IMG/VR virus record: IMGVR_UViG_3300035142_000037
Span: 1 to 64,000 of that record
DNA from: a virus
Reading direction: 5' to 3' (one strand)
Length of the DNA: 64,000 nt
Shown here: in pieces, positions 3,214 to 54,126 of the stretch
How the letters are laid out: each line of letters begins with the position of its first letter
Numbering within the stretch: position 1 is the stretch's first letter
Notes under the pieces: model-generated
Told to the model about the DNA's origin: nothing
The model's database searches: none
Seen by the model: only the letters and a program-made list of their open reading frames with translations
Position numbers and translations under genes: made by a program

Positions 3214-4662
3214 ATGCCTATATTCACCCAACCCAGGGGAACCTGGATAGATGAATCACTTATCGATCATAACCTATTAAACAATCTGCAAGGGGGGCAG
3301 GCCGGACAATACTATCATTTTACGGCTGCTGAATATGTAGATTTCGGCAATATACCCACAACTTATTTAAAACTTGATGCTTCAAATGACCCGGTAACCG
3401 GACAATTAGATATGTCAAATCATATAATACCTACAACAAAAGCTTTATATGACCTGGGCAGCTCATCTCTTTTCTGGAGAACCCTTTACTTAAGTAATAA
3501 CGGCGGGAATGTTGCTTTATGCGAAGGGGTTCAGTCCGGGGGTGGGCCTACTAATTACACTTTCAATTGTGGTGGTGGCCAGTTCGGAGGTGATCAAAAT
3601 CAAGGTGGGACGTTTACTTTCAAGATGAATGATATTTCAAGTTCATTAGGTACATGCAGAAATTTTCTTGTATTAGATCCGGGCAGACCGGATGTTTTTG
3701 CAGCCGGGACAACCAATGATGTTATTTTCCAGGCTTATAATGGGATAGCCACATATGGTTTTGTATCTAGCTTTGGCGGTTGGAATGATATTGAATACGG
3801 GCTTGAACTACGCAGGATATCAGGGACGGAAACCTTTGCGAAAACACTGATATTTGATAATCAAATTCCGGTAAGCGATTTTAGGCGGTCGATAGATTTT
3901 AGAATCGGCAGTGTAAATAAATTGACTATCGAAAATGATGGAACAGTCTTAGCTGTGGATAGGCTCCAAACTCCATTTTTAAATGCGACAGTGATTACAA
4001 ATGGGTTCAGTATTGGTATAGAAGGAGCGGGCACTTCATCATGGACTGGATATCCTAATTTTTTTGGACTTAATTGGTTTGATTATATAACAGTGTTTTC
4101 CACAACGACCAATCTACCAATGTGTTTGGGAATATTTCCAAATGGAACAGGTAATGCTGGTTATGTAAATGTGTACAATAATGGTAATATAGGTGCAACC
4201 GCCTGGTTAGAAATGGGTGTAAGAGGGGCTATTGCTGAATTGGTCGTCCGGGATTTTTCACAAACTACAAATATCACAACGCTTAATATTGGAAGTGGCG
4301 GGAATGATTTTCCTACATTTGATGTCACCTGTACTACGCTGACAGACATCAATCTGATTTTTGCCGGGGTAACATATTATAATTTTACTTCAACCTTATT
4401 GACTTTTTCAGATGCGGTGAATATGGCATTTAACACAGCAACCGGAACAAAAATAGGGACAGCGACAAATCAGAAATTAGCTTTCTATAATTCAATACCT
4501 ATCGTACAGCCTTCCAGTACTGGGCAAACAGCCGGACATACCGGAGGTGTAGGAGCAAATATACAAGTGGATTCAACTTTTACTGGGGGTGTCGGAGCAA
4601 TAGCATATACGATAGGGGATATAGTAAGACATCTAAAAAACTTAGGTTTAATCGCTGCATAG
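3214..4662 (+). CDS. fibre-like structural protein
   Basis: 482 aa; N-terminal DHNLLNNLQGG..YYHFT resembles the H..L.NL...H motif of phage fibre N-termini; Gly/Thr/Asn-rich; start codon 7 nt after a -10 box (near-leaderless). Confidence 0.5.
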   Translation: MPIFTQPRGTWIDESLIDHNLLNNLQGGQAGQYYHFTAAEYVDFGNIPTTYLKLDASNDPVTGQLDMSNHIIPTTKALYDLGSSSLFWRTLYLSNNGGNVALCEGVQSGGGPTNYTFNCGGGQFGGDQNQGGTFTFKMNDISSSLGTCRNFLVLDPGRPDVFAAGTTNDVIFQAYNGIATYGFVSSFGGWNDIEYGLELRRISGTETFAKTLIFDNQIPVSDFRRSIDFRIGSVNKLTIENDGTVLAVDRLQTPFLNATVITNGFSIGIEGAGTSSWTGYPNFFGLNWFDYITVFSTTTNLPMCLGIFPNGTGNAGYVNVYNNGNIGATAWLEMGVRGAIAELVVRDFSQTTNITTLNIGSGGNDFPTFDVTCTTLTDINLIFAGVTYYNFTSTLLTFSDAVNMAFNTATGTKIGTATNQKLAFYNSIPIVQPSSTGQTAGHTGGVGANIQVDSTFTGGVGAIAYTIGDIVRHLKNLGLIAA

Positions 4663-4670
4663 GAGGAAAT

Positions 4671-4964
4671 ATGGCTTTACAGATGAGGCAAACAAGCTTT
4701 ATTACAAAATTATCTTTATTTGTTAATAAAATGGAAGCATTATGGTATGAAGGTATGTGTCTTGAGAAATGTTTTGATGAGGAATTTGATACTGAAAAAG
4801 ACAACGCTTTAGATGAGGTAACGCAGGATATAGAAAATAGTTATGGTTTCAGCGCTACAAACATAGAAGATGCAATCACGGCGATAAAACAATTTAGAAA
4901 TTATTATGAAGGAAATGCCGTTATTACCAATGAATATGGAAAGGATATACGCCGAATAAAATGA
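4671..4964 (+). CDS. hypothetical protein
   Basis: 97 aa, GGAGG SD upstream. Confidence 0.5.
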   Translation: MALQMRQTSFITKLSLFVNKMEALWYEGMCLEKCFDEEFDTEKDNALDEVTQDIENSYGFSATNIEDAITAIKQFRNYYEGNAVITNEYGKDIRRIK

Positions 4965-8974: not shown

Positions 8975-9990
8975 GTGATTTAAGACAGATATTTATTCCT
9001 GTTGAGGATTTACCATATAGCGTGAAAGATGTAGCTTTAGCAGATTGTGAAATTAAAATACTTGAAGAGGGAATTGTAACTGGATATGCAGCAACTTTTC
9101 ATAAAAAACCTGATTTGGGCGGGGACGTTATAGAACCAGGGGCTTTTCTTGAAACAATTAAAAATGGTGGTGTACATGGAAATGGTATAAAAGTTTTATG
9201 GCAACATCAGCATATGAAACCTATCGGGATTCCCTTGGAGATGAAAGAGGACAAACGGGGATTATTTGTAAAAACACAATTGGGAATGGAAACGCAGGAC
9301 GGCCACGATGCCTTTATTTGGGCAAAGATGGGCGCTATTGACGGACATTCAATAGGTTATAAAATATATGATTTCAGAAGAAATGATGAAGACAAAAATA
9401 AAGTTAGTAGATATTTAAAAAAACTCGGATTATATGAATATTCATTTGTTACCTTTGCCATGAATCCACGGGCAGGAATAACAAATGTTAAAACAGCTAT
9501 AAAGACAGCAAAAACTGAGAGAGAACTTGAAAGAGCCTTGCGGGATGCAGGGTTGTCAAAATCGGAAGCTCAATACGTGGTTGCGCTTTGCAAACCTAAA
9601 TTGAGACTGGCCGGTGAAGGAAACTTAAAGGATTTGCTGAAAACTATACAAAGTGTTAATGCAGACCTTCTATTAACACATATACTTAATTCTGCGGGAA
9701 GCGGAAAAGAGTATACATGGGAAGAAATGAAACCCTATGCAAATGAGCATTCATGCAGGTTGCAGGATCCAGGGAAATACAAAAAATTTCGTAGACAAAA
9801 TAATGCAGCAACAGTAGATGGAAAACGGATTGATTTTATTTATGGGATTTTAGCAGCTAACAAGTCAGAATTGCAGGCTATCAGATATCCGAAGGATATT
9901 TGGGAGGCTTCATCTGCACGGAGTCATTGCAAATCAAAAGGAGGTAATTTTGAACAGGCAAGCGGGAAGTTTGTTTGTAATTTAGAATAA
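8971..9990 (+). CDS. prohead protease (HK97 family) with C-terminal extension
   Basis: ATGA-coupled start with AAGGAGG SD; GYAATF...DLGGDVIEPGAF N-terminal signature; about 150 aa extra C-terminal region. Confidence 0.8.
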   Translation: MSDLRQIFIPVEDLPYSVKDVALADCEIKILEEGIVTGYAATFHKKPDLGGDVIEPGAFLETIKNGGVHGNGIKVLWQHQHMKPIGIPLEMKEDKRGLFVKTQLGMETQDGHDAFIWAKMGAIDGHSIGYKIYDFRRNDEDKNKVSRYLKKLGLYEYSFVTFAMNPRAGITNVKTAIKTAKTERELERALRDAGLSKSEAQYVVALCKPKLRLAGEGNLKDLLKTIQSVNADLLLTHILNSAGSGKEYTWEEMKPYANEHSCRLQDPGKYKKFRRQNNAATVDGKRIDFIYGILAANKSELQAIRYPKDIWEASSARSHCKSKGGNFEQASGKFVCNLE

Positions 9991-11439: not shown

Positions 11440-11943
11440 ATGAAAAGAGATATATATTCAAATTTTAGATTTTTACAGGCATTACCTCCGTTGATTTATC
11501 ATAGCGGTACTTTTCCGGCAGGTGGTGAAATATCAGGACCGTCTATTGATACCCAGGGATTTGAAGGACTTACCTTTGCAATCGAAACCGGAGATGTAGA
11601 TGTATCACAGGCTACCAGTCTTGTTGTAATCAGGATGATGCACGCAGAAGATTCAGGAGTAGGACCATCCACTTACATCAATGTGAGTGCAGAGGATATC
11701 ATACATAGTGCTTATTCATTTGGAGATGCTTTAACATCCGGGATTGTGTTCGATTTTTCTATATCCGGTACATCGGTTGCGGACTTGGAATCTACAACAT
11801 TTTATGTTGGCTATATTGGAACACAACGATATGTGAAACTTTTCGTTGAATCACATGGAACTGCGGATGCTGGATCAACATACATTGGAGCCACAGCCAT
11901 ACTCGGATACCCCAACAATTGGCCCGTTACTGAACCAGGTTAA
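11440..11943 (+). CDS. hypothetical head-associated protein
   Basis: 167 aa, GGGAGG SD, directly after capsid gene. Confidence 0.55.
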   Translation: MKRDIYSNFRFLQALPPLIYHSGTFPAGGEISGPSIDTQGFEGLTFAIETGDVDVSQATSLVVIRMMHAEDSGVGPSTYINVSAEDIIHSAYSFGDALTSGIVFDFSISGTSVADLESTTFYVGYIGTQRYVKLFVESHGTADAGSTYIGATAILGYPNNWPVTEPG

Positions 11944-11955
11944 GTGAGGTGATGT

Positions 11956-12516
11956 ATGGCAGAAACAAGTAGTAATTATCAAACAAAAATTGGTATAGAA
12001 AAAGAGGCTGAAAGATTTTTCATGCGAGAAGATGGATATTTCAACTTTTTTGATGAAGAATTTCCAGGCGGAATATTACGATCACTCGCACAACAAACAA
12101 AAGTATATACGATTACAAATTATTCAACAGCAGGAACTACATTGTCTGATCATGGAGGAAGTGCACCTCCTGTATTGCCGTCCGGTTATGGAACAATCAG
12201 AATAGAAGCGAGTGATGCCGGTACAAATCTTTCAGCACGATTGGCAAGTGCTTATTCAGGACAAGAACTTAATCTTGTACTAATGGCCGGATCAGTTGCA
12301 TCTGTGATTATATACTGTTCTGGACATGCATCCGGCATATCCGGGGTGAATGTAATTGGGTTACATCATTCGGCAGGCGCATCTGCATTATCATCAATCA
12401 GCATGAGACAATCAGCGGGAAGTTTTGCGAGAGTGAAACTAAGAGCATTAGATTCAGGCGATTGGGCTGTTGTAGAAATTGACTCCGTTGATAATGTAAC
12501 TGAAAGAAGAGCATAA
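11956..12516 (+). CDS. hypothetical head-associated protein
   Basis: 186 aa, GAGGTG SD; followed by a GC hairpin terminator. Confidence 0.55.
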   Translation: MAETSSNYQTKIGIEKEAERFFMREDGYFNFFDEEFPGGILRSLAQQTKVYTITNYSTAGTTLSDHGGSAPPVLPSGYGTIRIEASDAGTNLSARLASAYSGQELNLVLMAGSVASVIIYCSGHASGISGVNVIGLHHSAGASALSSISMRQSAGSFARVKLRALDSGDWAVVEIDSVDNVTERRA

Positions 12517-23773: not shown

Positions 23774-24222
23774 AAATACAGTTCGATGAGCTTACACAGG
23801 AGTTTGATTTTTCATACAATAATGGCGATTTAGTCCGGGAGGAAGGACTGGAAACGGCTGTATTGATATCGCTTTTCACAGACCGACGGGCAAATGAAGA
23901 TGATGAATTAATCAACCAGGGGCAATACCGGGGATGGTGGGGGGATCTGCTATCCGAAGATGATCAGATAGGTTCCCGGTTATGGCTGATAAGACAAAAA
24001 GCTACTCAGCAGAATGTTAATCTTGCAAAGGAATACATCATAGAAGCATTACAATGGATGATTGATGATAGAGTGGTTGCTAAAATAGATGTGGAAACGG
24101 AAGCACAGGGACCGGCAGAAAATAAAAGGCTTGCAGCACGGATAAGAATATATTATAATGATGGGAACGTGGAAGCGATAGAGTTTAAAAATTTATGGGA
24201 GGCGCAGATTGCCGTTTCTTAG
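23758..24222 (+). CDS. baseplate protein (Mu gp46 family)
   Basis: 154 aa; GLETAVLISLFTDRRA...WWGD...GSRLWL signature. Confidence 0.85.
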   Translation: MASDIKIQFDELTQEFDFSYNNGDLVREEGLETAVLISLFTDRRANEDDELINQGQYRGWWGDLLSEDDQIGSRLWLIRQKATQQNVNLAKEYIIEALQWMIDDRVVAKIDVETEAQGPAENKRLAARIRIYYNDGNVEAIEFKNLWEAQIAVS

Positions 24223-25324
24223 ACCGACACTTTCAGAACTATACGAACGAAACAAGGGCGATATAAAGAATGCTCTTGCAGAACCGCAAACTCTTTTACG
24301 GCGGTCGGCTTTATTGATTCTTGCAGCGATGCACTCTGGGGGTTTACATCTACAGTATGGTTTCCTTCAATATATGAGAGAACAGATTTTCGCACTTACG
24401 GCAGATACTGAAAACCTGGAGAATCATGGGAATGAGTTTGGTATTATACGAAAAGAAGGAGCAAAGTCTACCGGCCAGGTAACAATAACTGGAACCGTGG
24501 GGCAAACAATCCCTGCATTGACTCAATTGCAAAGTTCATCCGGGAATATATATCTTACAGATGATGCCTACACTATTGGCGGGGCCGGAAGTGTAACGGC
24601 AAATATAACCGCACAGGATTATGGAGATGATTATGATGAAGATGGGGGAATAACTTTGAATTTCATTTCTCCAATTTCAGGCATAAATACAAACTGTACA
24701 GTAAGTTCTGCCGGAATAACCGGGGGAACGGATGAGGAAGATGATGAAAATTACCGAGAACGAATATTATTAAGGAAACGGCGGACACCACATGGCGGGG
24801 CTAGTTTCGATTATGAGGCTTGGATGTTGGAAGTCTCTGGGGTAACACGGGCCTGGTCAATTCCACAATATTACGGGGATGGTACAATAGGATGTGCATT
24901 TGTATATGATATCGAAGAAAATGGAGAAAAAAGTATAATTATACCAAATTCGACACAGCGGGAAGCGGTAAGACAATATATTCTTACACATATCAATCCA
25001 TCTACTAACACAACAGTAGGGGCTCCAGTAACAGCAGAACATGGAATTATAATGATTGAACTACGGGCCAGAGCAATTAACTTCAATATACAGATATATC
25101 CTAATACAGCGGATGTCCAGGCAAGTGCACGGAGTAGATTGCAGGATCTTATTGACACCTACGGGGGACCGGAACAAAATGTAGCATTATCACAAATGAC
25201 AGAGGCTATCGGATCGGCGGTGGGAGAAATACGGCATAGAATAATAAGTCCCACGGATGATGAAGTGGCCGCATCAAATGAAGTACATACGTTAGGGGAG
25301 GTGACATTTTTAGCTTATGAGTAG
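24209..25324 (+). CDS. baseplate J-like protein (Mu gp47)
   Basis: 371 aa, TTG start after GGGAGG; gene order and size. Confidence 0.8.
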   Translation: MPFLRPTLSELYERNKGDIKNALAEPQTLLRRSALLILAAMHSGGLHLQYGFLQYMREQIFALTADTENLENHGNEFGIIRKEGAKSTGQVTITGTVGQTIPALTQLQSSSGNIYLTDDAYTIGGAGSVTANITAQDYGDDYDEDGGITLNFISPISGINTNCTVSSAGITGGTDEEDDENYRERILLRKRRTPHGGASFDYEAWMLEVSGVTRAWSIPQYYGDGTIGCAFVYDIEENGEKSIIIPNSTQREAVRQYILTHINPSTNTTVGAPVTAEHGIIMIELRARAINFNIQIYPNTADVQASARSRLQDLIDTYGGPEQNVALSQMTEAIGSAVGEIRHRIISPTDDEVAASNEVHTLGEVTFLAYE

Positions 25325-26111
25325 AAGCGTAGAACAATACAGAAATCTATTACACTCATTACTTCCCCAGGGAGAAATCTGGAAAAAAGATAATTCAAAA
25401 GTACTTGCAAAAATATTGCTTGGTTTAGCATATGAATTCAATCGTATAGATATAAGAACAGAAGAATTATTGACAGAACGGGATAGCCGGTATGTTGAAG
25501 AATTGCTTACAGAGTTTGAAGCAGAGTATGGATTACCGGAAGAAGGGCTGGAACTTGAATCGACAACGGAGCGTCGAAGAAATGTTGTGCACTCAAAAGT
25601 AATTGCAATAGGCGATCAGGATGAGGATTACTTTATCGCAATTGCGGAAGCCTTAGGCTATACTATAGAGATTGAAACTTTCCGGCCAGCCTGGGCAGGT
25701 GTGGCAACGGCCGGGGACACATGCGGTGATCAGAATGTGCTATTCAAATGGATCGTGTGGGTTGATGCTAATGCTATAGAATATAGCATTGACGTGAATC
25801 TTACACAGTTAATTCACGATATTGTGAAAGTAAAACCAGGACATACACAGGTATTTTTTCGGTGGAAAGGACCAGCTTTTTCACGGGCATTTAGCAGGGC
25901 GTTTGACAGTGTACCGCATTATGATAATTACTGGCCCGAATCCGAAAATGCTTTTAGTCCTGCTTTTTCAGATGCCTTTCCAAATAATACAAGTTATCAT
26001 GGTGTTAATTATACGGGTGCTTTTTCGCAAGCTTTTTCAATAGCTTTTGATAGAAAATCAGGAGGGGCATTCAGTAAAGCTTTTGCACAAGCATTCGATC
26101 AACCAAACTAA
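25317..26111 (+). CDS. baseplate/tail protein (Mu gp48, DUF2313-like) with C-terminal AFSxAF repeats
   Basis: 264 aa; N-terminal YRNLLHSLLPQGEIW signature; four or five AFSxAFSxAF-type repeats at nt 25875-26099. Confidence 0.8.
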   Translation: MSRSVEQYRNLLHSLLPQGEIWKKDNSKVLAKILLGLAYEFNRIDIRTEELLTERDSRYVEELLTEFEAEYGLPEEGLELESTTERRRNVVHSKVIAIGDQDEDYFIAIAEALGYTIEIETFRPAWAGVATAGDTCGDQNVLFKWIVWVDANAIEYSIDVNLTQLIHDIVKVKPGHTQVFFRWKGPAFSRAFSRAFDSVPHYDNYWPESENAFSPAFSDAFPNNTSYHGVNYTGAFSQAFSIAFDRKSGGAFSKAFAQAFDQPN

Positions 26112-26122
26112 GGAGGTAAACA

Positions 26123-26725
26123 ATGGCAGATACAGCGAGAACCAGGGCTGCTATATTAAGTCTTTTTGCGGATAATGTCACGGGGCAATGTGGGGCACAG
26201 GATCAGAGAGATTTCATTGTAACGGTGATGCCGGATGATTTCGTGAATCCAGGTGATTTTTTTACACGGCCACAGGCAAAATATCATTATACTGACAAAA
26301 CTGCATGGGGGTGGATTGAATATTCACAATTCATTTATCAAGCATGTAGTTTTGGCAATATTCTTACCATGGATGAGTCAACAGGTGGATGGTATTTGGC
26401 AGATGCGGCGGATTCAGCATTACAAGGGTTGCTTGCAATGGCTATGGATTCATATGCAGCAAACGAAAGTCAAGGGCAGGTATTGAAGGAAGGACTTGTG
26501 TGTAATTCGGTATTTTCCACAGTTTTTTCTAGGTATATCGGAAGGCCGGTTTATTTAGACAGAACCGGAGACGGCAGTATTACAGTAAGTGTCTCGGTAA
26601 CTTCGGCTGCAAGTTTTATCAGAATTGGTGCTGTGGTCATAAGCACTCCGATGTCGATTACATCGGCTGACAGTACAAGTGCTTATTGGTATTTCAAACC
26701 GGATTGGGCAGTAATAAGTGCATAA
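26123..26725 (+). CDS. putative tail fibre-associated protein
   Basis: 200 aa, AAGGAGG SD; N-terminal R.AILSLFADN.TG....QD.RDF pattern seen in phage fibre-type proteins. Confidence 0.5.
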   Translation: MADTARTRAAILSLFADNVTGQCGAQDQRDFIVTVMPDDFVNPGDFFTRPQAKYHYTDKTAWGWIEYSQFIYQACSFGNILTMDESTGGWYLADAADSALQGLLAMAMDSYAANESQGQVLKEGLVCNSVFSTVFSRYIGRPVYLDRTGDGSITVSVSVTSAASFIRIGAVVISTPMSITSADSTSAYWYFKPDWAVISA

Positions 26726-26776
26726 TATAAGGAGAAAAAATGGATATTCATTCTATTATTAATAGGAGGTATTGGT

Positions 26777-28354
26777 ATGCATAGGACAGAAGGCGAAAAT
26801 GCTGTGCTTGATTTAAATGGGCATAGAATATATACAGAAGGTCCACCACCAACCACTATTACAGCAGCAAGTTTAAATGCGCTACAAGAAGAAATTTGCC
26901 ATGTAATTGAACAGGCAGGATTTACACTAAAAACAGCACAAACAGATACGCATACGCAATTATATGAAGCTATTGCGACATTGGGCAATCCTTACGATTA
27001 CGTAGTATATAGTAATCCTACTTTTTTAGATGCAATTGAAAGAGTGGCAGCAAATCAATATAAATTCAAGGATAATATTGAATCAATACATTTCAAATCT
27101 TCTGAATATTCGATGTCTTATGTTTTGTCAGGCGGGGATACATGGGGATATCTTGAAACAAATCAATGCAAATATATAGATTTTGAAATGGGCGCTTATA
27201 TTAATATGGGAAATGAACGGGGATATATTGAAGCAAACACAGAAGGATGTTTGTTGCAAAACGTAAGTATTAGAGGGCTTGGCACTGTTGCTTCTGCAAT
27301 TGCAAGGTCATATTTATTGAATGCTAGTTATGTCACATTTAATAATTGCGATTCTCAAATCAGATTAACAAATACTGATTGTATTGTATTTGAAGGATCA
27401 GGAACAAGCTTACATAATGATACTTCGGTTTATAATGGATGTAAGGTGATCAACTTTACTTCATCTAGTGGAAATTTAAATATTATGAAGGATACAAAGA
27501 ATGTAAGTAACTTCATAATATATGATATTGAATCTACTTCTGGAAGTGCTTTTGATAATATTTTTATAATGGAAAATTGTTATAATTGCAATAACATAAC
27601 GGTTAAAAAAATTGATCATAGCGGAAGTGGTGATATAGTCGGGATTAAGAACTGTTATAATGTTTCTAATATTTATATAGAAGATGTCGACGGAAATGAT
27701 GATTTTTTCGGAATATCCTTAAGTTATTTTTTAAGTAATATATATATAATAGACATAGATATGGGCGATTCTTGTTTTGGAATTTATAGTGGTGGAAATT
27801 TTACAAATGTATACGTAGCAGATATGACTGGGGTAGTTTGTTATGGATTTTATAGTCCTGGGTTACTTTGGGGCTTGAATAATTGTAAGGCCATTCAATT
27901 AGATGCAACTGGAAATTGCTATGGATTTTATAACTGCGCCAACTTATCAAGTTGTTATGCAGAGGATATAGATAGTTCCGGTGGTAATTATCATGGATTT
28001 TATCAATGTAATCAATTATCTTCCTGCTATGCAACAGATTGCGAAGATGGATTTAATACATGTAAGCAAGTAACTGGATGTCAAGCTGAAGCAAATGATA
28101 ATGATGGATTCAATGATTGTAATAATATAGCAGGGAGTCGGGCAACATCAAACGGTAACGATGGATATAATACTTGCACCTGCATATCAGCTTGTCGGGC
28201 AAATACCAATACAGGAAATGGCTATAATGGTTGCAATACCATGACGGCGAATAGAGCAGCCGGGAATACAGCAGCACAGTATAATAATTCATTTGCCGAT
28301 CTTGCGGGATTAAATGCATGCGCTGACACCTCGTTAGGCGGTTATAATGGATAG
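26777..28354 (+). CDS. tail fibre / receptor-binding protein with Cys-rich C-terminal repeats
   Basis: 525 aa; N-terminal ...SLNALQEEICHVIEQAGF.L......QLYEAI fibre motif; C-terminal about 20-aa repeats G(F/Y)..C..(L/I)..C.A. Confidence 0.65.
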   Translation: MHRTEGENAVLDLNGHRIYTEGPPPTTITAASLNALQEEICHVIEQAGFTLKTAQTDTHTQLYEAIATLGNPYDYVVYSNPTFLDAIERVAANQYKFKDNIESIHFKSSEYSMSYVLSGGDTWGYLETNQCKYIDFEMGAYINMGNERGYIEANTEGCLLQNVSIRGLGTVASAIARSYLLNASYVTFNNCDSQIRLTNTDCIVFEGSGTSLHNDTSVYNGCKVINFTSSSGNLNIMKDTKNVSNFIIYDIESTSGSAFDNIFIMENCYNCNNITVKKIDHSGSGDIVGIKNCYNVSNIYIEDVDGNDDFFGISLSYFLSNIYIIDIDMGDSCFGIYSGGNFTNVYVADMTGVVCYGFYSPGLLWGLNNCKAIQLDATGNCYGFYNCANLSSCYAEDIDSSGGNYHGFYQCNQLSSCYATDCEDGFNTCKQVTGCQAEANDNDGFNDCNNIAGSRATSNGNDGYNTCTCISACRANTNTGNGYNGCNTMTANRAAGNTAAQYNNSFADLAGLNACADTSLGGYNG

Positions 28355-28409
28355 AGAAAAATGGGTCAAACTCCTTGGAATAAGGGATTGAAAATGAATA
28401 GGAAGAATA

Positions 28410-28673
28410 ATGATGAAACTTAAAATAACAACAGACAAAACTTTTCGTATGTACGGTATAGATTCAATCACGCCGCTGCAAAGTATAGATGGCCGGCAGG
28501 TTGATTATCGATATTCCGATCCTGCGGATACTAATCCTGTGTATAATTACTTTGAAATTGCGATGAACGGAAACACAAAAGTGCTTGCCGTTTCTGGAAA
28601 AGTAGAACAATGGGAAATCCCGGACACCGCACAAAAAGTAGATGAATGGGAAAAACCAAATAAAAATAAATAG
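28410..28673 (+). CDS. hypothetical protein
   Basis: 87 aa, AGGAAG SD. Confidence 0.45.
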   Translation: MMKLKITTDKTFRMYGIDSITPLQSIDGRQVDYRYSDPADTNPVYNYFEIAMNGNTKVLAVSGKVEQWEIPDTAQKVDEWEKPNKNK

Positions 28674-28683
28674 GGGTAAAATT

Positions 28684-29061
28684 ATGGATAAAAACATGAA
28701 GGAAGCTTTTGTCCAGTCTGGTACGACTGGAAAAGTAATCATTGGATTTTGTCTGATAGTTATGATTTTTCTTGGTGTATTTGCGTGGCTTTCAGCAGAG
28801 GGGAATGCGCAGGGAAATCGGCTGATCATGAAATTAACAGAGCTTATTGAAGAGCAAAAACAATTAGAATTTTTCAAGAAATGCGTTCATGAAGATTTAG
28901 GGGAGGCAACAATATATTATAATGATGAGTTAATACCTGAAATAGGGAAAATATTAACCGAAAATAATATACCCTTTCCCCAAGGGCTTAATGTTAAGTT
29001 TATGAAGTATCGGGAAAAAATGGAAGCAATCAAGGATTGTTTGATTTTTCCAGATAGATAG
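28684..29061 (+). CDS. membrane-anchored protein
   Basis: ATG at 28684; one N-terminal TM helix (VIIGFCLIVMIFLGVFAWL); followed by a terminator. Confidence 0.5.
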   Translation: MDKNMKEAFVQSGTTGKVIIGFCLIVMIFLGVFAWLSAEGNAQGNRLIMKLTELIEEQKQLEFFKKCVHEDLGEATIYYNDELIPEIGKILTENNIPFPQGLNVKFMKYREKMEAIKDCLIFPDR

Positions 29062-29147
29062 CTTAATTTTTACTTAACAGTTACAACAATTAGTTTCTGT
29101 CACTCCCGCACCCACACCATGAGGTTTATTGGTAGTCATACCACTTT

Positions 29148-29172
29148 AGGCAGCCGTGTGCTGCCTTTTTTT
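29148..29172 (+). terminator. intrinsic terminator
   Basis: AGGCAG-7nt-CTGCCT followed by T7. Confidence 0.7.
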
Positions 29173-29176
29173 ATGC

Positions 29177-29325
29177 TTGACTTTTTTTCCGGTATCTGAT
29201 ATATTATGTATGTGTATGTACCGGTTTGCTTCATATGATACTCCTTTGTATTTTTCTCCTTTCTTCTTAGCATACACATTTATCCGGTTCGGCAGTTCCC
29301 CCATTCTGCCGACCGGAAATTTTTG
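29177..29325 (+). promoter_or_regulatory. promoter TTGACT-16-TATATT + leader with 12-bp hairpin and U5
   Basis: Hairpin TCCGGTTCGGCAG/CTGCCGACCGGA at 29283-29317 followed by AATTTTT, upstream of 29341. Confidence 0.5.
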
Positions 29326-29340
29326 AAAGGCGGTTGAATA

Positions 29341-29589
29341 ATGAAAATTAAAAAAGGACCTGCATTTCTTATAACTCATATAACTTTTTTCGTTATGTTT
29401 CTGCTGATAGTTTTTTTTGCTCCGGATCAGTTGCTTGCAGCCGGGGTCCCGATCATACTCGCAATGGCGGCTAATATAGCCCAGTTCTGCGGGTTCCAGG
29501 TGGCTGACAACTGGCAAAAGGGGAAAAATTATCACTGGGAATTAGACAGTAACATGAAAAGCAAAACGGAAAAGATTGACTATAATTAG
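29341..29589 (+). CDS. holin-like two-TM protein
   Basis: 82 aa, two hydrophobic helices, first gene after a promoter, upstream of a peptidase gene. Confidence 0.45.
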   Translation: MKIKKGPAFLITHITFFVMFLLIVFFAPDQLLAAGVPIILAMAANIAQFCGFQVADNWQKGKNYHWELDSNMKSKTEKIDYN

Positions 29590-29603
29590 GAAGGACAGGG
29601 GAA

Positions 29604-30140
29604 ATGAAATGGCAAAGAACACTTATATTATGTATAGTATTATCCTTATTATCGGGTGCTTGTTATGGGCTGGAATCGGATACTGCATCTGTTTTACAAT
29701 TCAATCCGGAAAACTGCGTAATGTCCAGGCCAGTGAAAAATTACTTTCTGAACAACTTGAATCAGCAATTGCAACTATTGACCGACTTAACACAATTAAT
29801 GATATTAATAAATCCAGGATCGAAAGAGATGCAGAAACTATTGAGCAGCTACAAAGGGATATTCACGATACAAAGGAAAATTATAGAGAACTTGAACAGC
29901 AAAATAATCGACTCGGAGAAGCAAATAACCGACTTACAGAGCTCAAACGAAGAATGGAAGAAAGAGAACGAAAAGCAGGCGAAATTATTGAACAGCTTAG
30001 AGGAAAAGTTGAGCAATTCAGAGCAGATATTGAAGCGATACCAGAGACGTATATGGATTGAGAGGGTGAGCCTGATAACGGTGGCCGTGGCTGCGGTTAT
30101 ATGGGGAGCGAGACAAAGGAGGTATAAATGGAACGATTGA
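29604..30140 (+). CDS. alternative-frame ORF: signal peptide/lipobox-like N-terminus and C-terminal hydrophobic segment
   Basis: 178-codon ORF fully overlapping 29609-30061 in another frame; N-terminus MKWQRTLILCIVLSLLSGAC; fills the otherwise non-coding 30062-30127. Confidence 0.35.
   Translation: MKWQRTLILCIVLSLLSGACYGLESDTASVLQFNPENCVMSRPVKNYFLNNLNQQLQLLTDLTQLMILINPGSKEMQKLLSSYKGIFTIQRKIIENLNSKIIDSEKQITDLQSSNEEWKKENEKQAKLLNSLEEKLSNSEQILKRYQRRIWIERVSLITVAVAAVIWGARQRRYKWND
29609..30061 (+). CDS. N-terminal TM + coiled-coil protein (lysis accessory / i-spanin-like architecture)
   Basis: ATG at 29609, GGGG 8 nt upstream; purine-first, A/T-third codon pattern through the coiled-coil part. Confidence 0.55.
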   Translation: MAKNTYIMYSIILIIGCLLWAGIGYCICFTIQSGKLRNVQASEKLLSEQLESAIATIDRLNTINDINKSRIERDAETIEQLQRDIHDTKENYRELEQQNNRLGEANNRLTELKRRMEERERKAGEIIEQLRGKVEQFRADIEAIPETYMD

Positions 30141-30550
30141 AAAAACATAATATAATTAAGCGTATCACAATAAGCCTGATACTGGTTATAATTAATTTAG
30201 GATTATTCTGGCTTATAAGTTCTGCTTATAACATAATGGATATCCTGGATACCCGAAATCATGAGACAGAAGCACGAATAGTTTTTTATGCCATTGTATA
30301 TATAGCGGTTATTTTGAATGGCATGTTTATTTATCACCTGCCCAACTGGGTAGATTCCTGGGTGAAAGGGCAGGGCAAGTGGCATCTTGAGCATACTATA
30401 GCTTATTATAATAATATACTTGACAGAGATGAGGCAGAGCCTATTACTTTGAAGGGTATTTATAATGAGAATAAATCGAGAATTGAAGGTGCTTTAAAAA
30501 AAGCATTGATAGGTGAGAAGAATCTTAAAAAAATAGGAGGTAAGGAATGA
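30128..30550 (+). CDS. membrane protein (2 TM)
   Basis: 140 aa, AAGGAGG SD. Confidence 0.5.
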   Translation: MERLKKHNIIKRITISLILVIINLGLFWLISSAYNIMDILDTRNHETEARIVFYAIVYIAVILNGMFIYHLPNWVDSWVKGQGKWHLEHTIAYYNNILDRDEAEPITLKGIYNENKSRIEGALKKALIGEKNLKKIGGKE

Positions 30551-31170
30551 AAAAGGTTAATGGAGAAAATATATATTATAGTCAGAAAAATAATGCATTT
30601 GTCGAAGTATTTCAAGATTATTTTTTTCGGGAATATGAAAAGGTAAGAGGGGAAGCAACCGGGGAGGTTAAAAAGACTTTAGATGACCTTCGTAGAAAAA
30701 TATTTCTACACGTCACATGTTTCCCTACCAGTATGGCGGATGGTATACATTCATGTGGCTGGCCGATGGATATTTTCCCTCCAGGTTTACAGCCCGAAGA
30801 TGGGATTATGTGCATACTTAATAACCCTGTGATTGCAAAAAAATTACACCAGGGTTCTCGATACGTACCGCCATCCTGGGCGTATAATGAGATACCGGAT
30901 TATTATCCTACTGCAATTAATGCAGCATGGGGAAATAAGCAGGTATGCAAATTTGAGCGAAATATTACAATACAGGAATATTCCGGGTATATCGATCATG
31001 GTTATTGCATAGCATATGCGCATCCTGGACATGTTATAATAGGGAAGGGGTATGATATTGTGAATGGCAAGACATTTAGGGTTTACAATGATCCATATCG
31101 AAAACCTAAAATGATAGAACCTGCGAAAACATTAGCCTGGGGAGTAGTGATTTTTCCGTTCCAAAAATAA
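30547..31170 (+). CDS. putative papain-like cysteine peptidase (candidate endolysin)
   Basis: 207 aa; candidate Cys (..HVTCFPTS..) and His (..HPGHVIIGKGYD..NDPY) arrangement; last gene of the membrane-protein cluster. Confidence 0.45.
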   Translation: MKKVNGENIYYSQKNNAFVEVFQDYFFREYEKVRGEATGEVKKTLDDLRRKIFLHVTCFPTSMADGIHSCGWPMDIFPPGLQPEDGIMCILNNPVIAKKLHQGSRYVPPSWAYNEIPDYYPTAINAAWGNKQVCKFERNITIQEYSGYIDHGYCIAYAHPGHVIIGKGYDIVNGKTFRVYNDPYRKPKMIEPAKTLAWGVVIFPFQK

Positions 31171-31215
31171 CCAAGGGGGTGGCAGTGCTCCCCCCCCCCC
31201 CCCCGTCCTTACCCG
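31171..31215. terminator. convergent-operon hairpin containing a C15/G15 run
   Basis: GGGGGTGG-7nt-C15; on the - strand the hairpin is followed by UUGGUUAUUUUUGG. Confidence 0.4.
31190..31204. repeat. homopolymer C15 (G15 on - strand)
   Basis: Counted directly: C at 31190-31204. Confidence 0.95.
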
Positions 31216-31274
31216 GACAGTATCCAGGCGATTACCCTCATCTAGCGTCGGGCGGCTGATCCGGGTTATTAAGG

Positions 31275-31520
31275 CTACCGGACGAGACCTTTTTTTGACC
31301 AACAATAATAAAACCCAAATGATCCCCATAAACCTATGGCGATATTTATTCCGCTTTTACCCATTGTAATATGGAATTCTATATTGAAAGTAGTTAGCCG
31401 CCAATTGAAAAATATTGCACCTCGCCGATTGAAATTCTTATCAACAATTTTCCAACTTGCATGAGCATGTATTTCATTTAGCAGATTTCGCTTAAAATAT
31501 ATTTCTTCTTTTATGATCAT
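31275..31520 (-). CDS. hypothetical protein with C-terminal hydrophobic segment
   Basis: 81 aa, GGAGGAA SD on the - strand. Confidence 0.5.
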   Translation of the reverse strand: MIIKEEIYFKRNLLNEIHAHASWKIVDKNFNRRGAIFFNWRLTTFNIEFHITMGKSGINIAIGLWGSFGFYYCWSKKGLVR

Positions 31521-31534
31521 GTCTTTATTCCTCC

Positions 31535-31753
31535 TTACATCCCTGCGAAATCAGATGAGCTCTGTATTGTTGCTATAACCCAGCTGCTATGAGTCATAGA
31601 GGTTTGTGTACATTTAGATTCCCGGCCAGATGGTAGATATTTTAATATTGCGGTATCTCCTTGAATATCTATTACTTTTATAACCGGGAGACCTCTTTGA
31701 GTAGATTTTAATTTATCTCCGATATGAATCGTAAATCCTTGACTATCTGTCAT
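31535..31753 (-). CDS. hypothetical protein ending in DFAGM
   Basis: 72 aa, AAGGAGGAA SD; last 18 nt identical to the 3' end of the upstream gene. Confidence 0.55.
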   Translation of the reverse strand: MTDSQGFTIHIGDKLKSTQRGLPVIKVIDIQGDTAILKYLPSGRESKCTQTSMTHSSWVIATIQSSSDFAGM

Positions 31754-31770
31754 AGTTTTCCTCCTTATTA

Positions 31771-32091
31771 TTACATCCCTGCGAAATCCAGGGTATTTAT
31801 ATCTATGTCACAAGGTGCCTGTGACATAATAGCCTTACGAGTTTTCAGGTATTTTCCAGGGGACATGTCAGAATTCAACATGTTGTCAAATTCTATCTGT
31901 TCGAGATTCCATCTTCTACGATCTGTATTATGTACTTTCATGGCAGCTATCACACAGCTTTTCCAATTCTGATAAGAAGTACCTGTCTTAATCCCTGCCC
32001 ATGACATCTTAAGTCCTTCTGATAGGGATAAGTTGTACTTGACTCTTAGGCTGTGGGCTTCGGTCATAATCTGGCTTAAATTATATTTCAT
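31771..32091 (-). CDS. hypothetical protein ending in DFAGM; N-terminus paralogous to 33859-34359
   Basis: 106 aa, first gene of the leftward operon, AAGGAGGAA SD. Confidence 0.6.
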   Translation of the reverse strand: MKYNLSQIMTEAHSLRVKYNLSLSEGLKMSWAGIKTGTSYQNWKSCVIAAMKVHNTDRRRWNLEQIEFDNMLNSDMSPGKYLKTRKAIMSQAPCDIDINTLDFAGM

Positions 32092-33003: not shown

Positions 33004-33174
33004 ATGGAACTAAAAAGGTACGAAGTGAGGGAAAAATTTTCTCTACAAACTTTAGGCTCCTACGATACGAAGGAAGAAGCCTTTAATAGGCTTGCTTTTT
33101 TCTACGATTCAAAAATGCATAAATGGCATATTGCAATACAAATATATGACCATATAGAAAAAGTTGAAATCTAA
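33004..33174 (+). CDS. hypothetical small protein
   Basis: 56 aa (below track cutoff); AGAGGAGGA SD 5 nt upstream. Confidence 0.5.
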   Translation: MELKRYEVREKFSLQTLGSYDTKEEAFNRLAFFYDSKMHKWHIAIQIYDHIEKVEI

Positions 33175-33232
33175 TCAGTCCAGTGACAGGGGAGCGGGCG
33201 CTCCCCTTACCGGTTCAACTCCGGTTTGATTA
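33172..33232 (+). ncRNA. tRNA-like element E5 (tetraloop hairpin in place of anticodon arm)
   Basis: TAATCA/TGATTA closing stem; GGGGAGC-GGGC-GCTCCCC; ACCGG-TTCAACT-CCGGT; 26 nt before ATG 33259. Confidence 0.4.
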
Positions 33233-33258
33233 CATAGTCGAAAGACAAGGAGGGAATT

Positions 33259-33585
33259 ATGAAATTATATCACGCAACCCCAGAAAAATATTCTAACGAT
33301 ATCGGAAAGTATGGTCTTAGACCAAACGAATCTATCAAAAAATCAAATGATACAAGATTGAACATAGAAGCAGTTTACGGCTTTATCGATCAGGATAGTG
33401 CAATCAATTTTGCAATAGATAATTGCTGGGAATCATTTACGGTTTTTTGTTTTGATACTGGTGAAAACGAAGTAATTGAAGACACGGAATATGACGGGGA
33501 ATCAATAGCTGTTTTGACTGAAGAAAATATACCAGTATCGGCGATATCTGTAAAATATGATCATGGGATGAAAGTGAAAGAATAA
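33259..33585 (+). CDS. hypothetical protein
   Basis: 108 aa, AAGGAGGG SD; N-terminal KLYHAT...YGL.P. Confidence 0.55.
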   Translation: MKLYHATPEKYSNDIGKYGLRPNESIKKSNDTRLNIEAVYGFIDQDSAINFAIDNCWESFTVFCFDTGENEVIEDTEYDGESIAVLTEENIPVSAISVKYDHGMKVKE

Positions 33586-37985: not shown

Positions 37986-38052
37986 GGGGAGCTAAGGATT
38001 GCTACGGAGTTATGCAAGCTCTGTGTGAGGGGTTCAATTCCCCTGCTCTCCA
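37986..38052 (+). ncRNA. tRNA-like element E2 / pseudo-tRNA (truncated D-arm)
   Basis: Acceptor GGGGAGC/GCTCTCC (one G-U), T-arm AGGGG-TTCAATT-CCCCT, anticodon-like arm GGAGT-TATGCAA-GCTCT lacking U33; 67 nt. Confidence 0.45.
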
Positions 38053-43775: not shown

Positions 43776-43940
43776 ATGAAAGTATGTAATTATACAGACT
43801 GTTGTGATTATTCAGAAGATACAAAAAATCACTGTTTTAGTTTGATAGACATAAAAAAATGCGATCAGCATAAAACTAATCCGATTGTATGGTTAAAAAA
43901 ACTATGGTTTAAGATTAAAATATTTCTTGAATGTTTATAG
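43776..43940 (+). CDS. hypothetical Cys-rich small protein
   Basis: 54 aa, GGGAGG SD. Confidence 0.45.
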   Translation: MKVCNYTDCCDYSEDTKNHCFSLIDIKKCDQHKTNPIVWLKKLWFKIKIFLECL

Positions 43941-43950
43941 GGAGGTAATC

Positions 43951-44097
43951 ATGAATATAAGGGAAAAACCGCTTAAGCTTAGATGGTATACGGTAGGAAA
44001 AAATACCATACAGGCTGGGAGTCCTGGAGAAGCCAGACGGATAATCCAGGATATGGAGCGGTATAGAAATAAGACAGGTACGCAACCGTGTCGGTGA
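43951..44097 (+). CDS. hypothetical small protein
   Basis: 48 aa, GGGAGG SD. Confidence 0.45.
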   Translation: MNIREKPLKLRWYTVGKNTIQAGSPGEARRIIQDMERYRNKTGTQPCR

Positions 44098-44185
44098 CCG
44101 GGTGCCTGACAATATTTTTGTTACTTTATGTTTTTAGTAGTAGTATTTATTGAGAAGGCGTCCCGCTAAAGAGGCCGGGACGCTG

Positions 44186-44258
44186 CGGGGTGTCGCCAAG
44201 GTGGTAAGGCTAAGGGTTACATACCTGACATGCAGGGGTTCAATTCCCCTTGCCCCGA
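44186..44258 (+). ncRNA. tRNA-like element E3 / pseudo-tRNA (Gln-type D-arm, defective anticodon stem)
   Basis: Acceptor CGGGGTG/TGCCCCG, D-arm GCC-AAGGTGGTAA-GGC, T-arm identical to E2, anticodon stem only 3 bp. Confidence 0.45.
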
Positions 44259-44432
44259 CGCTCAACAGCCGGGATATAAGTAAGGATCTTGCCTATAAGC
44301 AAGATCACCTGCTGAACCAGGCGAGACAGGAATGCCGGCTTAATGAATCTTGGGAAATATTGCCGAGAGGCAATCGTGAGGCAAGCACTAGCCGTCCAAA
44401 CTGATCATGCGACGTAAAACTTGCCAGATCGT

Positions 44433-44605
44433 ACAGCGGTAATCTTCTGTAGGGAAGAAACGCCATTGACATCTAAATAGAGGTTTACCACCCTCGGCGT
44501 TTGAAAAGGTAGATGATAGGGTGATTCCTACAGGTAACGTGGTCCTATCGGTCGTGTGCCGAAAAAAAGCACAATCAATCACGGGTTCAAATCCCGGCTG
44601 CTGTA
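44433..44605 (+). ncRNA. expanded tRNA-like module (acceptor, D-arm and T-arm with about 110-nt insert)
   Basis: ACAGCGG/CTGCTGT acceptor pairing, TCTT-8nt-AAGA D-arm, ACGGG-TTCAAAT-CCCGG T-arm, ACGCC/GGCGT stem enclosing 31 nt. Confidence 0.3.
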
Positions 44606-44699
44606 TAGTTATTATCATCTTGCTATGACGAGATGACGGCGGCCCGTGTCGGCTCTCGGGATAATCCTTGATAGGGATGACAGCCGGAAAGACGGTGTA

Positions 44700-44767
44700 C
44701 AGTAGAGGCTATAGAGTGCCTGGGGCATGCTGATTGTCAATGTCCGGTTCGAATCCGGGTCTACTGT
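44700..44767 (+). ncRNA. tRNA-like element E4 / pseudo-tRNA
   Basis: Perfect 7-bp acceptor CAGTAGA/TCTACTG, T-arm TCCGG-TTCGAAT-CCGGG, loop ATGCTGA (U33, R37) on a weak stem; ATG 44769 follows. Confidence 0.45.
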
Positions 44768-44768
44768 A

Positions 44769-44912
44769 ATGAAGAATCCAGAATGGTGCACATTTGGGGA
44801 TACATGTCCCTACGTACTGAAAAATCAACCCTGTATTACTGCGTGCTGGTTTCACCGGGATGAGGTTGAAAAACGCAGAATCAACCGGGAAACCTGGGAG
44901 GAAAGAAAGTGA
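44769..44912 (+). CDS. hypothetical Cys-rich small protein
   Basis: 47 aa; ATG 2 nt after the 3' end of a tRNA-like element; no SD. Confidence 0.4.
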   Translation: MKNPEWCTFGDTCPYVLKNQPCITACWFHRDEVEKRRINRETWEERK

Positions 44913-44979
44913 CTATAATAGAATCAATCCAGAAAATTAAAGATTTCTTTCACGAAATAGCAGAAAGAAAGGTAGGTAT

Positions 44980-45129
44980 ATGAAAGAAATATTAAAAGGC
45001 AGTGAGACTTTCAGGCAAATCAATGGAGAGTTTGAAAAGTGGTGGGAAAAGAATCTTGAAGGGCGGATGTCGAAGAATAAATATCTAGCCCGAAAAGCAT
45101 GGTTTGCATCACGGGGGTTTAAGTTGTAG
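44980..45129 (+). CDS. hypothetical small protein
   Basis: 49 aa, AAAGGTAGG upstream. Confidence 0.4.
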   Translation: MKEILKGSETFRQINGEFEKWWEKNLEGRMSKNKYLARKAWFASRGFKL

Positions 45130-53888: not shown

Positions 53889-53889
53889 T

Positions 53890-53963
53890 GCCTGGGTAGC
53901 CCAACAGGAAGAGGCAACTGGTTTAAGCCCAGTAAAGTGGAAGTTCAAATCTTCTCCCAGGCA
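53890..53963 (+). tRNA. tRNA, anticodon UAA (Leu by anticodon) but class I (5-nt variable loop)
   Basis: Acceptor GCCTGGG/CCCAGGC, anticodon stem ACTGG/CCAGT, loop TTTAAGC, T-arm GGAAG-TTCAAAT-CTTCT, discriminator A. Confidence 0.75.
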
Positions 53964-53964
53964 A

Positions 53965-54038
53965 GCCGGAGTAGCCCAATTGGAAGAGGCGCTTGATTTA
54001 GGATCAAGAAGTTGTGAGTTCGAATCTCACCTTCGGTA
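53965..54038 (+). tRNA. tRNA, anticodon UAG (Leu by anticodon) but class I (5-nt variable loop)
   Basis: Acceptor GCCGGAG/CTTCGGT (two G-U pairs), anticodon stem CTTGA/TCAAG, loop TTTAGGA, T-arm GTGAG-TTCGAAT-CTCAC. Confidence 0.7.
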
Positions 54039-54040
54039 TA

Positions 54041-54126
54041 GGGAGTATATACCGTAAGTAGTAGCGGGGCTGACTGTAGATCAGTTGAGCTTAGTCTCTC
54101 GGGTGGTGCGACTCCATCTACTCCCA
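54041..54126 (+). tRNA. class II tRNA, anticodon GUA (Tyr-like), atypical T-loop
   Basis: Acceptor GGGAGTA/TACTCCC, anticodon stem GCTGA/TCAGT, loop CTGTAGA, long variable arm, T-loop TGCGACT, 4 nt between acceptor and D stem. Confidence 0.6.

Follow-up and report, generated by a model that had tools for sequence, protein, structure and literature searches.

In the transfer RNA (tRNA) region of phage T4, tRNAs are co-transcribed with the small stable species 1 and 2 RNAs. Elements shaped like tRNAs can also act as processing signals, as in mitochondrial tRNA punctuation, the t-elements of plant mitochondria and MALAT1-mascRNA. We analyzed a stretch of about 620 nucleotides (nt) at positions 44150-44768 of a 64,000-nt viral DNA, which we call the window (IMG/VR record IMGVR_UViG_3300035142_000037, positions 1 to 64,000). 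The stretch is genuine: a non-coding cassette that belongs to a tailed phage. It comprises one odd tRNA (tRNA1), two tRNA-shaped RNAs (M2 and T3) and several hairpins, including one just upstream of tRNA1 (H1) and one of the form UGACA-stem-GAAAGA-stem that recurs in other phages. As a known kind, it belongs with the phage clusters of tRNA and tRNA-like RNAs. Like those clusters, it is a head-to-tail series of such RNAs in a non-coding phage stretch, presumably matured by host ribonuclease P (RNase P); in contrast to them, just one of its modules passes a tRNA model, and M2, at about 170 nt, has conserved parts that are not tRNA. It also resembles the tRNA-like processing signals in having such an element at a cistron boundary, and here too a stable structure directly precedes the presumed RNase P site. 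However, the host here is a bacterial virus, cleavage is predicted, and the upstream structure is a small conserved hairpin rather than a triple helix.

The guanine-plus-cytosine (GC) content was 0.47-0.52 over positions 44100-44800 of the window, compared to mostly 0.27-0.40 in the flanking 2 kilobases (kb) on each side. Only short, overlapping open reading frames (ORFs) of no more than 84 amino acids (aa) were present at 44100-44800, on both strands. A reading made earlier from the letters of the window, referred to here as the sequence-only reading, had described a GC-rich, non-coding, structured stretch, and had named a conserved protein-coding frame in homologues as evidence to the contrary. 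When the region was compared with the homologous loci by six-frame tblastn, no such frame emerged (best E = 0.017), and the weak matches were scattered over several frames and both strands at a spot conserved in nucleotide sequence. The description held in its other parts as well, with the GC content above that of the flanks and every listed helix present as written. These helices included GCGTCCCG/CGGGACGC at 44158-44183, AGCCGG/CCGGCT (44267-72/44335-40) enclosing GATCTTGC-CTATAA-GCAAGATC, GATAGG/CCTATC, and TGTGC-CGAAAAAAA-GCACA. The T-loop consensus GGTTCRANTCC was found at 44237, 44584 and 44746, three times within 600 nt; the whole window had 5 matches, with 0.14 expected. Each of the three T arms was followed by the 3' strand of a 7-base-pair (bp) stem with its partner upstream, and the modules so delimited (Table 1) had essentially the coordinates proposed before. 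The minimum free energy (MFE) of the whole region was -219 kcal/mol (z = -2.3), and 1 of 20 shuffled sequences was equally stable. The z-score alone gives modest support, and compensatory changes in relatives are the stronger evidence.

All 4227 Rfam 15 families were searched by cmscan, with gathering thresholds for the whole window and E<=10 for the 1.1 kb at 43900-45000. The whole window gave tRNA matches only. In the 1.1-kb segment there was a single tRNA match of 33.2 bits at 44186-44258, and the rest were chance-level matches far below the family thresholds. GOLLD, ROOL, HEARO, OLE, transfer-messenger RNA (tmRNA, RF00023), RNase P RNA and group I intron models had no match there, and the kinship to GOLLD, ROOL or another large ornate RNA that had been suggested for the locus was not borne out. 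The match, tRNA1, exceeded the gathering score of RF00005 (29) with its anticodon arm unaligned, and ARAGORN called it 'tRNA-??? (taca)' with an 8-nt loop. Frameshift-suppressor tRNAs, such as the sufD type, likewise have 8-nt anticodon loops on a tRNA-like body; in contrast, the anticodon stem of tRNA1 carries a mismatch, and a frameshift site was neither sought nor found.

M2 and T3 had no RF00005 match in the 1.1-kb search, and ARAGORN at default settings was silent for both. Their likeness to tRNA is confined to the acceptor stem and T arm, their acceptor stems have no G3-U70 pair, and no CCA is encoded. T3 has a perfect 7-bp acceptor stem (CAGUAGA/UCUACUG) and the T arm CCGG-UUCGAAU-CCGG; neither its D arm nor its anticodon arm is canonical, and the putative loop UGCUGAU carries a G at position 33. 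A normal tRNA-Gly(tcc) stands at the equivalent place in one relative, contig L001, after the same hairpin, and among the relatives described below only the window and L001 have T3, or its counterpart, with the hairpin preceding it. Candidates for tmRNA were reported by ARAGORN only at the relaxed -ps80 setting, below the default threshold; none of their tags was identified, and the hairpin was used as the 'resume consensus'.

Relatives were reached via homologues of a 248-aa protein encoded 1.9 kb upstream. Four contigs had a comparable non-coding stretch (L247 9150-9760, L249 9330-9716, L251 9300-9730 and L001 11640-12260). Phages sharing H1 and M2 were only about 44-57% identical in the neighboring protein. 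The order common to L247, L249 and L251 was a hairpin, one or more odd tRNAs, a spacer and M2. The loop of H1 was conserved (AAAGAGGC), with the forms GCGUCCCG-UUAAAGAGGC-CGGGGCGC in L247 and CCCCCUG-CGAAAGAGGC-CAGGGGG in L249; every position of the stem differed between the window and L249, with pairing kept. The tRNAs after the hairpin were unusual in each case. L247 had an element of 111 nt, class-II-like and with 18 nt in its anticodon loop, and, at 9343-9413, a tRNA with a 6-nt anticodon loop (49 bits in Rfam; anticodon 'tc' in ARAGORN). L251 had a tRNA-Arg(tct) at 9424-9498 with A instead of U at position 33. L001 had a 135-nt tRNA with a large insert at 11898-12032 (38.8 bits in Rfam), preceded by a variant hairpin, GACAGUCGG-GAAUAGA-CCGGC. 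The spacer, S1, was 173 nt in the window compared to about 40 nt in L247, in which the S1 domain of the window was not conserved; conservation of the second part of S1 (44359..44425) was not seen in the relatives either. The S1 domain at 44264..44343 may be an expanded-loop relative of the widespread hairpin motif.

Upstream of H1 lies the run TAGTAGTAGTA, which consists of three amber codons in one frame and of GUA valine codons in another. UAC is present in the enlarged anticodon loops of the odd tRNAs downstream of it (window GUUACAUA, L001 AUUACAUA, L247 ACUACAAG). No consistent small ORF over the run was found in the window, L247 and L249. The small ORF MFLVVVFIEKASR, with its end in the H1 loop, was considered as a leader peptide for attenuation and rejected; the ORF is not conserved because L247 has no start codon in that frame.

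M2 is made up of a 7-bp closing stem (ACAGCGG/CUGCUGU), a D-arm-like hairpin, two further hairpins, and the T arm CGGG-UUCAAAU-CCCG, with an extended arm ACGCC...GGCGU that carries a distal hairpin GAGG/CCUC. In 3.7 megabases (Mb) searched, an nhmmer profile matched only the window, L247 and L249 (and the duplicate L250), the same three sequences from which it was built, with E values of 1e-34 to 1e-38; a 74-nt short form was present in L251. The closing stems of the homologues were ACAGCGG/CUGCUGU, AUGGCAG/CUGCCGU, ACAGCAG/CUGCUGU and ACGGCAG/CUGCCGU, in which the third pair alternates between A-U and G-C. Inner stem variants were ACGCC/GGCGU, ACCGG/CCGGU and UCCGGG/CCCGGA, and the distal hairpin was GAGG/CCUC or GGG/CCC, preceded by a conserved AAAUAG. 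Conserved blocks that are not tRNA were AAAUAG and AAAACUAAG.GYAACC. The consensus T-loop was kept only in the window and L247. The loops of the three homologues had no anticodon in common, and an intron-containing tRNA was rejected, since the intron mode of ARAGORN built only an implausible 252-nt 'intron' spanning M2 to T3. M2 may represent a new RNA family with few members.

Compensatory changes, which a comparison with related contigs had been proposed to reveal, were thus found in both H1 and M2. The region consists of separable RNA modules in series, whose structure is under selection; it is therefore not a gene, and not one large RNA either. Since the relatives keep H1 and M2 but swap, lose or resize the tRNAs, S1 and T3, the earlier idea of a single 620-nt RNA does not stand. 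The fallback in the sequence-only reading, a decayed tRNA array or something new, came close to the truth. Plain decay is contradicted by the compensatory changes. Similar DNA was not found among 50,697 GenBank phage records. Relatives reached via the HTH_36 and DnaC-like neighbors were contigs without the cassette. Exact or degenerate DNA patterns for the 3' end of M2, for H1, and for the TAG run with H1 had no matches, or chance matches in coding sequence, in IMG/VR and metagenomes.

The most widely conserved element of the cassette is the UGACA-GAAAGA hairpin at 44678-44696, which the sequence-only reading missed while placing the acceptor and T-arm modules correctly. It consists of UGACA, a 4- to 5-bp stem, the loop GAAAGA, the other stem strand and A; its form in the cassettes is UGACA-GCCG-GAAAGA-CGG(C/U)-A. 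A 17-mer, GACAGCCGGAAAGACGG, is identical in the window and L001, just upstream of the last tRNA-like element of each. This 17-mer was present in at least 119 IMG/VR contigs, with an estimate of fewer than 10 chance matches, and the hairpin overall in at least 240, always intergenic. At least 120 GTDB genome contigs of many phyla also carried GACAGCCGGAAAGACGG; about 70 chance matches were expected there, so that the GTDB matches are a mixture of real and chance ones, of which just a part was confirmed by context. The window had one hairpin copy compared to 0.06 expected, even with 3 mismatches allowed. The linear 7-mer GAAAGAC was not enriched in the window (10 found, 7 expected).

An independent scan of IMG/VR in which three stem positions were left free (TGACANNNGGGAAAGACC) recovered at least 120 contigs. 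Among the 117 non-redundant matches listed, the free positions were all paired in 102, compared to 1 in a control with shifted partners. Eight stem variants occurred among the matches listed; of the fully paired ones, GCCGG/CCGGC accounted for 82, and the remaining stems covaried (e.g., UGCGG/CCGCA, GCUGG/CCAGC and GUCGG/CCGAC). Additional copies with other stems within 100 nt of the first copy were on the same strand in 19 cases and on the opposite strand in none. Loop variants fit GAA-(0-2 nt)-AGA. The base before GACA was mostly U, in the 17-mer class as well; the scan pattern fixed this U in about half of 174 copies, so that only in the 17-mer class is it informative. An A followed the hairpin in 63%. 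All three frames were closed upstream of the hairpin in viral contigs. The element is a real RNA structure: its stem covaries, its loop and flank are fixed, and it is strand-specific and intergenic. No Rfam 15 family matched it, and neither the motif string nor a named phage tRNA-leader hairpin was found in the searchable literature; we could not find a description of this widespread phage hairpin in either source.

Several other identities were considered for the hairpin and rejected. The UGA of UGACA as a stop codon or as part of a signal like the selenocysteine insertion sequence (SECIS) does not fit, being in frame with a long upstream ORF in just 2% of copies. TGACA as part of a sigma-70 promoter has no conserved -10 element, and the 5' end of the tRNA is too close. 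Theta ribozymes, which are like those of hepatitis delta virus (HDV), are located at tRNA 3' ends (PMC10879173). The core sequences do not suit either a hammerhead or an HDV-like ribozyme, and the hairpin has no conserved sequence upstream of it. A miniature RNase P substrate with a 3' ACC tail was likewise dismissed, given that A(A)CC follows just 34 of the 174 copies.

Genomic contexts were counted for 157 non-redundant phage copies, with tRNAs called by ARAGORN; the hairpin is placed with respect to the feature downstream of it. Seventeen copies were 3-9 nt upstream of a called tRNA, and in 14 of these 17 that tRNA opens a cluster. Every tRNA within 1.2 kb of a hairpin (81 of 81) was on the same strand. 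A Shine-Dalgarno sequence and start codon followed within 90 nt in 31 of the 157 copies (median 38 nt), and distances to the upstream gene were spread over 0-300 nt. In four large phage contigs of about 130 kb (L374, L377, L380 and L424), a Leu-Leu-Pro-Gln-Leu array of tRNAs begins 5-8 nt after the hairpin. In L027, two tRNAs about 1 kb apart (four by Rfam) each had a hairpin copy 8-10 nt upstream. No protein family was common to the neighborhoods within 4 kb, the largest cluster being present at 18 of about 119 loci. One phage group had the hairpin between scaffold-like and capsid-like genes, as read from representative sequences without a Pfam scan.

Enteric lambdoid elements had the hairpin in an early leader. 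The copy in L013 was about 115 nt downstream of a terminator-promoter pair. In L246, a prophage of Escherichia coli (NZ_CP098214), positions 4011-4956 form an untranslated early leader of about 950 nt beside a cI-like gene, with a promoter, five copies of the hairpin GGAAAGAC, a tRNA-like element (about 4441-4530) and a terminator-like hairpin; no N-like gene was annotated there. A leader of this type was matched, partly or fully, in 509 of 5426 complete E. coli genomes (about 9%). Five metagenome-assembled genomes of Actinomycetota (L182 5736-6119, L226 4299-4678, L160, L214 and L174) had three tandem hairpins inside genuine tmRNAs. These copies, of the form UGACNG-stem-GAAAGA-stem, fill the region of pseudoknots 2-4, where Rfam leaves a 122-nt stretch unaligned, and the tmRNAs have normal tags (e.g., ANDNLALAA). 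In Pseudomonas phage or prophage contigs (e.g., L008, L153 and L217), the hairpin was followed by a second conserved hairpin, CCGAUGC-CCUGCUCCCCAUCGCAGGCU-GCAUCGG, and the pair stood within about 6 nt after a stop codon, which suggests a larger element specific to that lineage.

We propose, with a probability of about 0.42, that this modular non-coding cassette lies within a block of early, rightward genes in a tailed phage that is uncultivated, and that it is processed by host tRNA enzymes. The cassette would be transcribed as one unit with the surrounding small early genes. Host tRNA processing would recognize tRNA1, M2 and T3, with RNase P acting 5' of the acceptor stems and 3' endo- and exonucleases acting after them, and would release the aberrant tRNA1 and the tRNA-like M2 as products that may be stable and functional. 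The operon transcript would in this way be cut into separate pieces, a form of tRNA punctuation. The hairpins 2-5 nt upstream (H1 before tRNA1 and UGACA-GAAAGA before T3) would stay behind as structured 3' ends of the upstream fragments, and the cut after T3 would leave the ORF at 44769 almost leaderless. Exonucleases acting from the 3' end need a longer tail to engage, and the 3-9-nt spacing between hairpin and tRNA would fit a tail too short for them. The sequences themselves show the anatomy of the cassette, that H1, M2 and the hairpin are conserved and covary, that coding is lacking, and that hairpin and tRNA are tightly spaced across many phages.

Several findings weigh against this proposal. 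About 80-90% of the hairpin copies are not beside a tRNA, and a merely protective role leaves the strongly conserved loop and UGACA flank of the hairpin without explanation. No terminator or convincing promoter was found at the cassette by scan. The candidate TTGTTA-17-TAGTAT, which had been put forward as a promoter, is present in the sequence but agrees with the consensus at just 8 of 12 positions, below the scan threshold. About 80 more distant relatives of the 248-aa neighbor, from metagenomes, lacked the cassette. L249 and L251 keep the closing stem of M2 and lack the consensus T-loop, so that recognition of M2 by RNase P is not guaranteed in all relatives, and with just 3-4 members of M2 the covariation statistics are weak.

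The main rival, which we consider unlikely, is an untranslated cis-regulatory leader that controls elongation, termination or stability of downstream early or replication genes, the hairpins acting like nut or put antitermination signals or as binding sites for host factors. The L246 leader argues for it, with five hairpins and a tRNA-like element in an untranslated stretch directly after a promoter and beside a cI-like repressor gene, the position of nutL and N in lambda. The copy after the terminator-promoter pair of L013 and the hairpins that mark the start of long untranslated tRNA arrays point the same way. Lambda boxB has a 5-bp stem and a purine loop, and the hairpin is similar: like nut boxB and the HK022 put sites, it is short, has a purine-rich loop, and stands in the early leader after a promoter in enteric prophages. 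However, its loop and flank are different, it occurs in many phyla and in late-gene and tRNA contexts, and neither an N-like protein nor any other family is common to its neighborhoods. The window copy is near the 3' end of the untranslated stretch rather than its start, and sites between scaffold-like and capsid-like genes or inside tmRNAs would be unexpected for an antiterminator. The motif was also absent, with up to 4 mismatches allowed, from HK022 24000-32000, a stretch expected to include the immunity region and hence the put sites, which are unannotated in the record. A decaying tRNA array, whose modules would be functionless, drifting pseudogenes of phage tRNAs that once worked, is doubtful. 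It would account for the failure of T3 and M2 in tRNA models, the loop and mismatched stem of tRNA1, the defective-looking tRNAs of relatives (the 6-nt loop and A33), and the intact tRNA-Gly of L001 at the place of T3; against it are the helices of H1 and M2, kept by compensatory changes despite the divergence of the neighboring protein, the conserved non-tRNA blocks in M2, and a GC content still well above that of the flanks.

A divergent tmRNA-like or aminoacylatable tRNA-like system, with M2, T3 or both as tRNA-like domains and the hairpin as a tmRNA-type module, is very improbable. Like tmRNA, the cassette has tRNA-like domains that lack an anticodon arm for decoding, the hairpin is a tandem block in the pseudoknot 2-4 region of some actinobacterial tmRNAs, and the relaxed ARAGORN candidates make use of it. 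In contrast to tmRNA, the region has no tag reading frame, alanine identity pair or Rfam match (RF00023, E<=10); no plausible tag ORF is conserved among the window, L247 and L249; CCA is not encoded; and the ARAGORN calls stay below the default threshold. We give the least credence of all to one large ornate RNA of the GOLLD or ROOL type, or of a new class of that kind. The cassette has the length, phage origin, lack of coding, GC enrichment and nearby tRNA-like elements of such RNAs, but it matches no Rfam model, its fold z-score is just -2.3, and its modules are gained, lost and resized independently, as in a modular composite rather than one conserved fold.

The hairpin also resembles part of RNase P RNA. 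In the RF00010 consensus, CR-I (GAGGAAAGUCCGGgC) and CR-V (ACAGAACCCGGCUUA) form helix P4 with two 5' joiners; E. coli rnpB (L480) was compared as well. The hairpin UGACAG-CCGG-GAAAG-A-CCGG-C corresponds to ACAG + CCGG followed by GGAAAG-N-CCGG-C, with the same order of joiners and helix strands and the same topology, and it is often beside predicted RNase P cleavage sites. In contrast to RNase P RNA, it has 21 nt, is circularly permuted, lacks the other RNase P elements, and changes its stem freely. Chance is a serious alternative for this likeness, because several conserved RNAs were compared first and because the stem is variable. It is quite unlikely that the hairpin is an undescribed RNA module of phages of many bacterial phyla that mimics the P4 core and binds the RNase P protein or otherwise engages RNase P. 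The S1 domain (44264-44343) ends in CCGGCUUA, which is identical to the 3' part of CR-V.

Table 1. Features of the cassette and its borders in window coordinates
Feature	Position	Strand	Evidence or remark
Weak sigma-70-like promoter candidate TTGTTA-17-TAGTAT	44118..44146	+	8/12 consensus, below scan threshold
TAGTAGTAGTA run overlapping promoter candidate	44135-44145	+	Conserved in L247 9184-9194 and L249 9373-9383
Hairpin H1, GCGUCCCG-CUAAAGAGGC-CGGGACGC	44158..44183	+	Covarying stem, conserved loop; ends 2 nt before tRNA1
tRNA1, aberrant, 8-nt anticodon loop GUUACAUA, mismatched anticodon stem	44186..44259	+	ARAGORN, Rfam tRNA
Spacer domain S1, helix ACAGCCGG...CCGGCUUA with ~62-nt insert	44264..44343	+	Sequence, MFE fold
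S1 inner hairpin GAUCUUGC-CUAUAA-GCAAGAUC	44286-44307	+	Sequence, MFE fold
Rest of S1: AUUGCC-GAGA-GGCAAU (44359-74), GGCAAG...CUUGCC (44380-85/44420-25)	44359..44425	+	Sequence, MFE fold
M2, conserved ~170-nt RNA	44433..44604	+	nhmmer, compensatory changes
Spacer hairpin CAUCUUG-CUAUGA-CGAGAUG	44616..44635	+	Sequence, MFE fold
Widespread hairpin UGACA-GCCG-GAAAGA-CGGU	44678..44696	+	3 nt (44697-44699) upstream of T3
T3, degenerate tRNA-like element	44700..44767	+	Read from sequence
Next ORF, 47 aa	44769..44912	+	ATG 2 nt after T3 discriminator base

The ORF after T3 has no Shine-Dalgarno sequence upstream and no Pfam family match. The window is a tailed-phage-like contig, in which neighbors of the cassette include AAA_24, HTH_36, a DnaC-like loader and DUF5131 (Pfam). 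Normal tRNAs are clustered 9 kb downstream of the cassette, at 53889-54126, in the order Leu(taa), Leu(tag), Tyr(gta); ARAGORN calls all three, and Rfam confirms both Leu genes (57-61 bits). Two further intergenic elements of the window are tRNA-like. At 33173-33246 there is a 59-nt miniature with the closing stem AAUCA/UGAUU and the T arm CCGG-UUCAACU-CCGG, with UGACA and then the hairpin GGGGAGC-GGGC-GCUCCCC in its interior; it is followed by GUC-GAAA-GAC, which contains GAAAGAC, directly upstream of a Shine-Dalgarno sequence and the ATG at 33260. At 37986-38052 (continuing to 38196), upstream of the AAA_24 gene, a 67-nt element has a T arm and an acceptor stem of alanine type (GGGGAGC/GCUCUCC; G3-U70, discriminator A) without recognizable D or anticodon arms. 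In L247 the homologous gap is occupied at 4291-4365 by a normal tRNA-Ile(tat).

The common view of phage tRNA genes is that they are tools for codon usage or against host defences. The cassette points to tRNA shape as a processing handle, and M2 indicates a second use, tRNA shape as the scaffold of a conserved RNA of about 170 nt. The simplest reader for a hairpin so conserved and widespread would be a host machine that is itself conserved, for example the ribosome, RNA polymerase or RNase P. If it were a P4 mimic, it would engage RNase P at the 5' borders of cistrons and tRNA arrays and so steer where and how phage transcripts are cut, and the tandem copies in some tmRNAs would be a further sign of that interaction. 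Its repeats in the E. coli prophage leader make it testable in a standard laboratory host, and identifying its reader would show how the beginnings of tRNA arrays and genes are marked in many phages.

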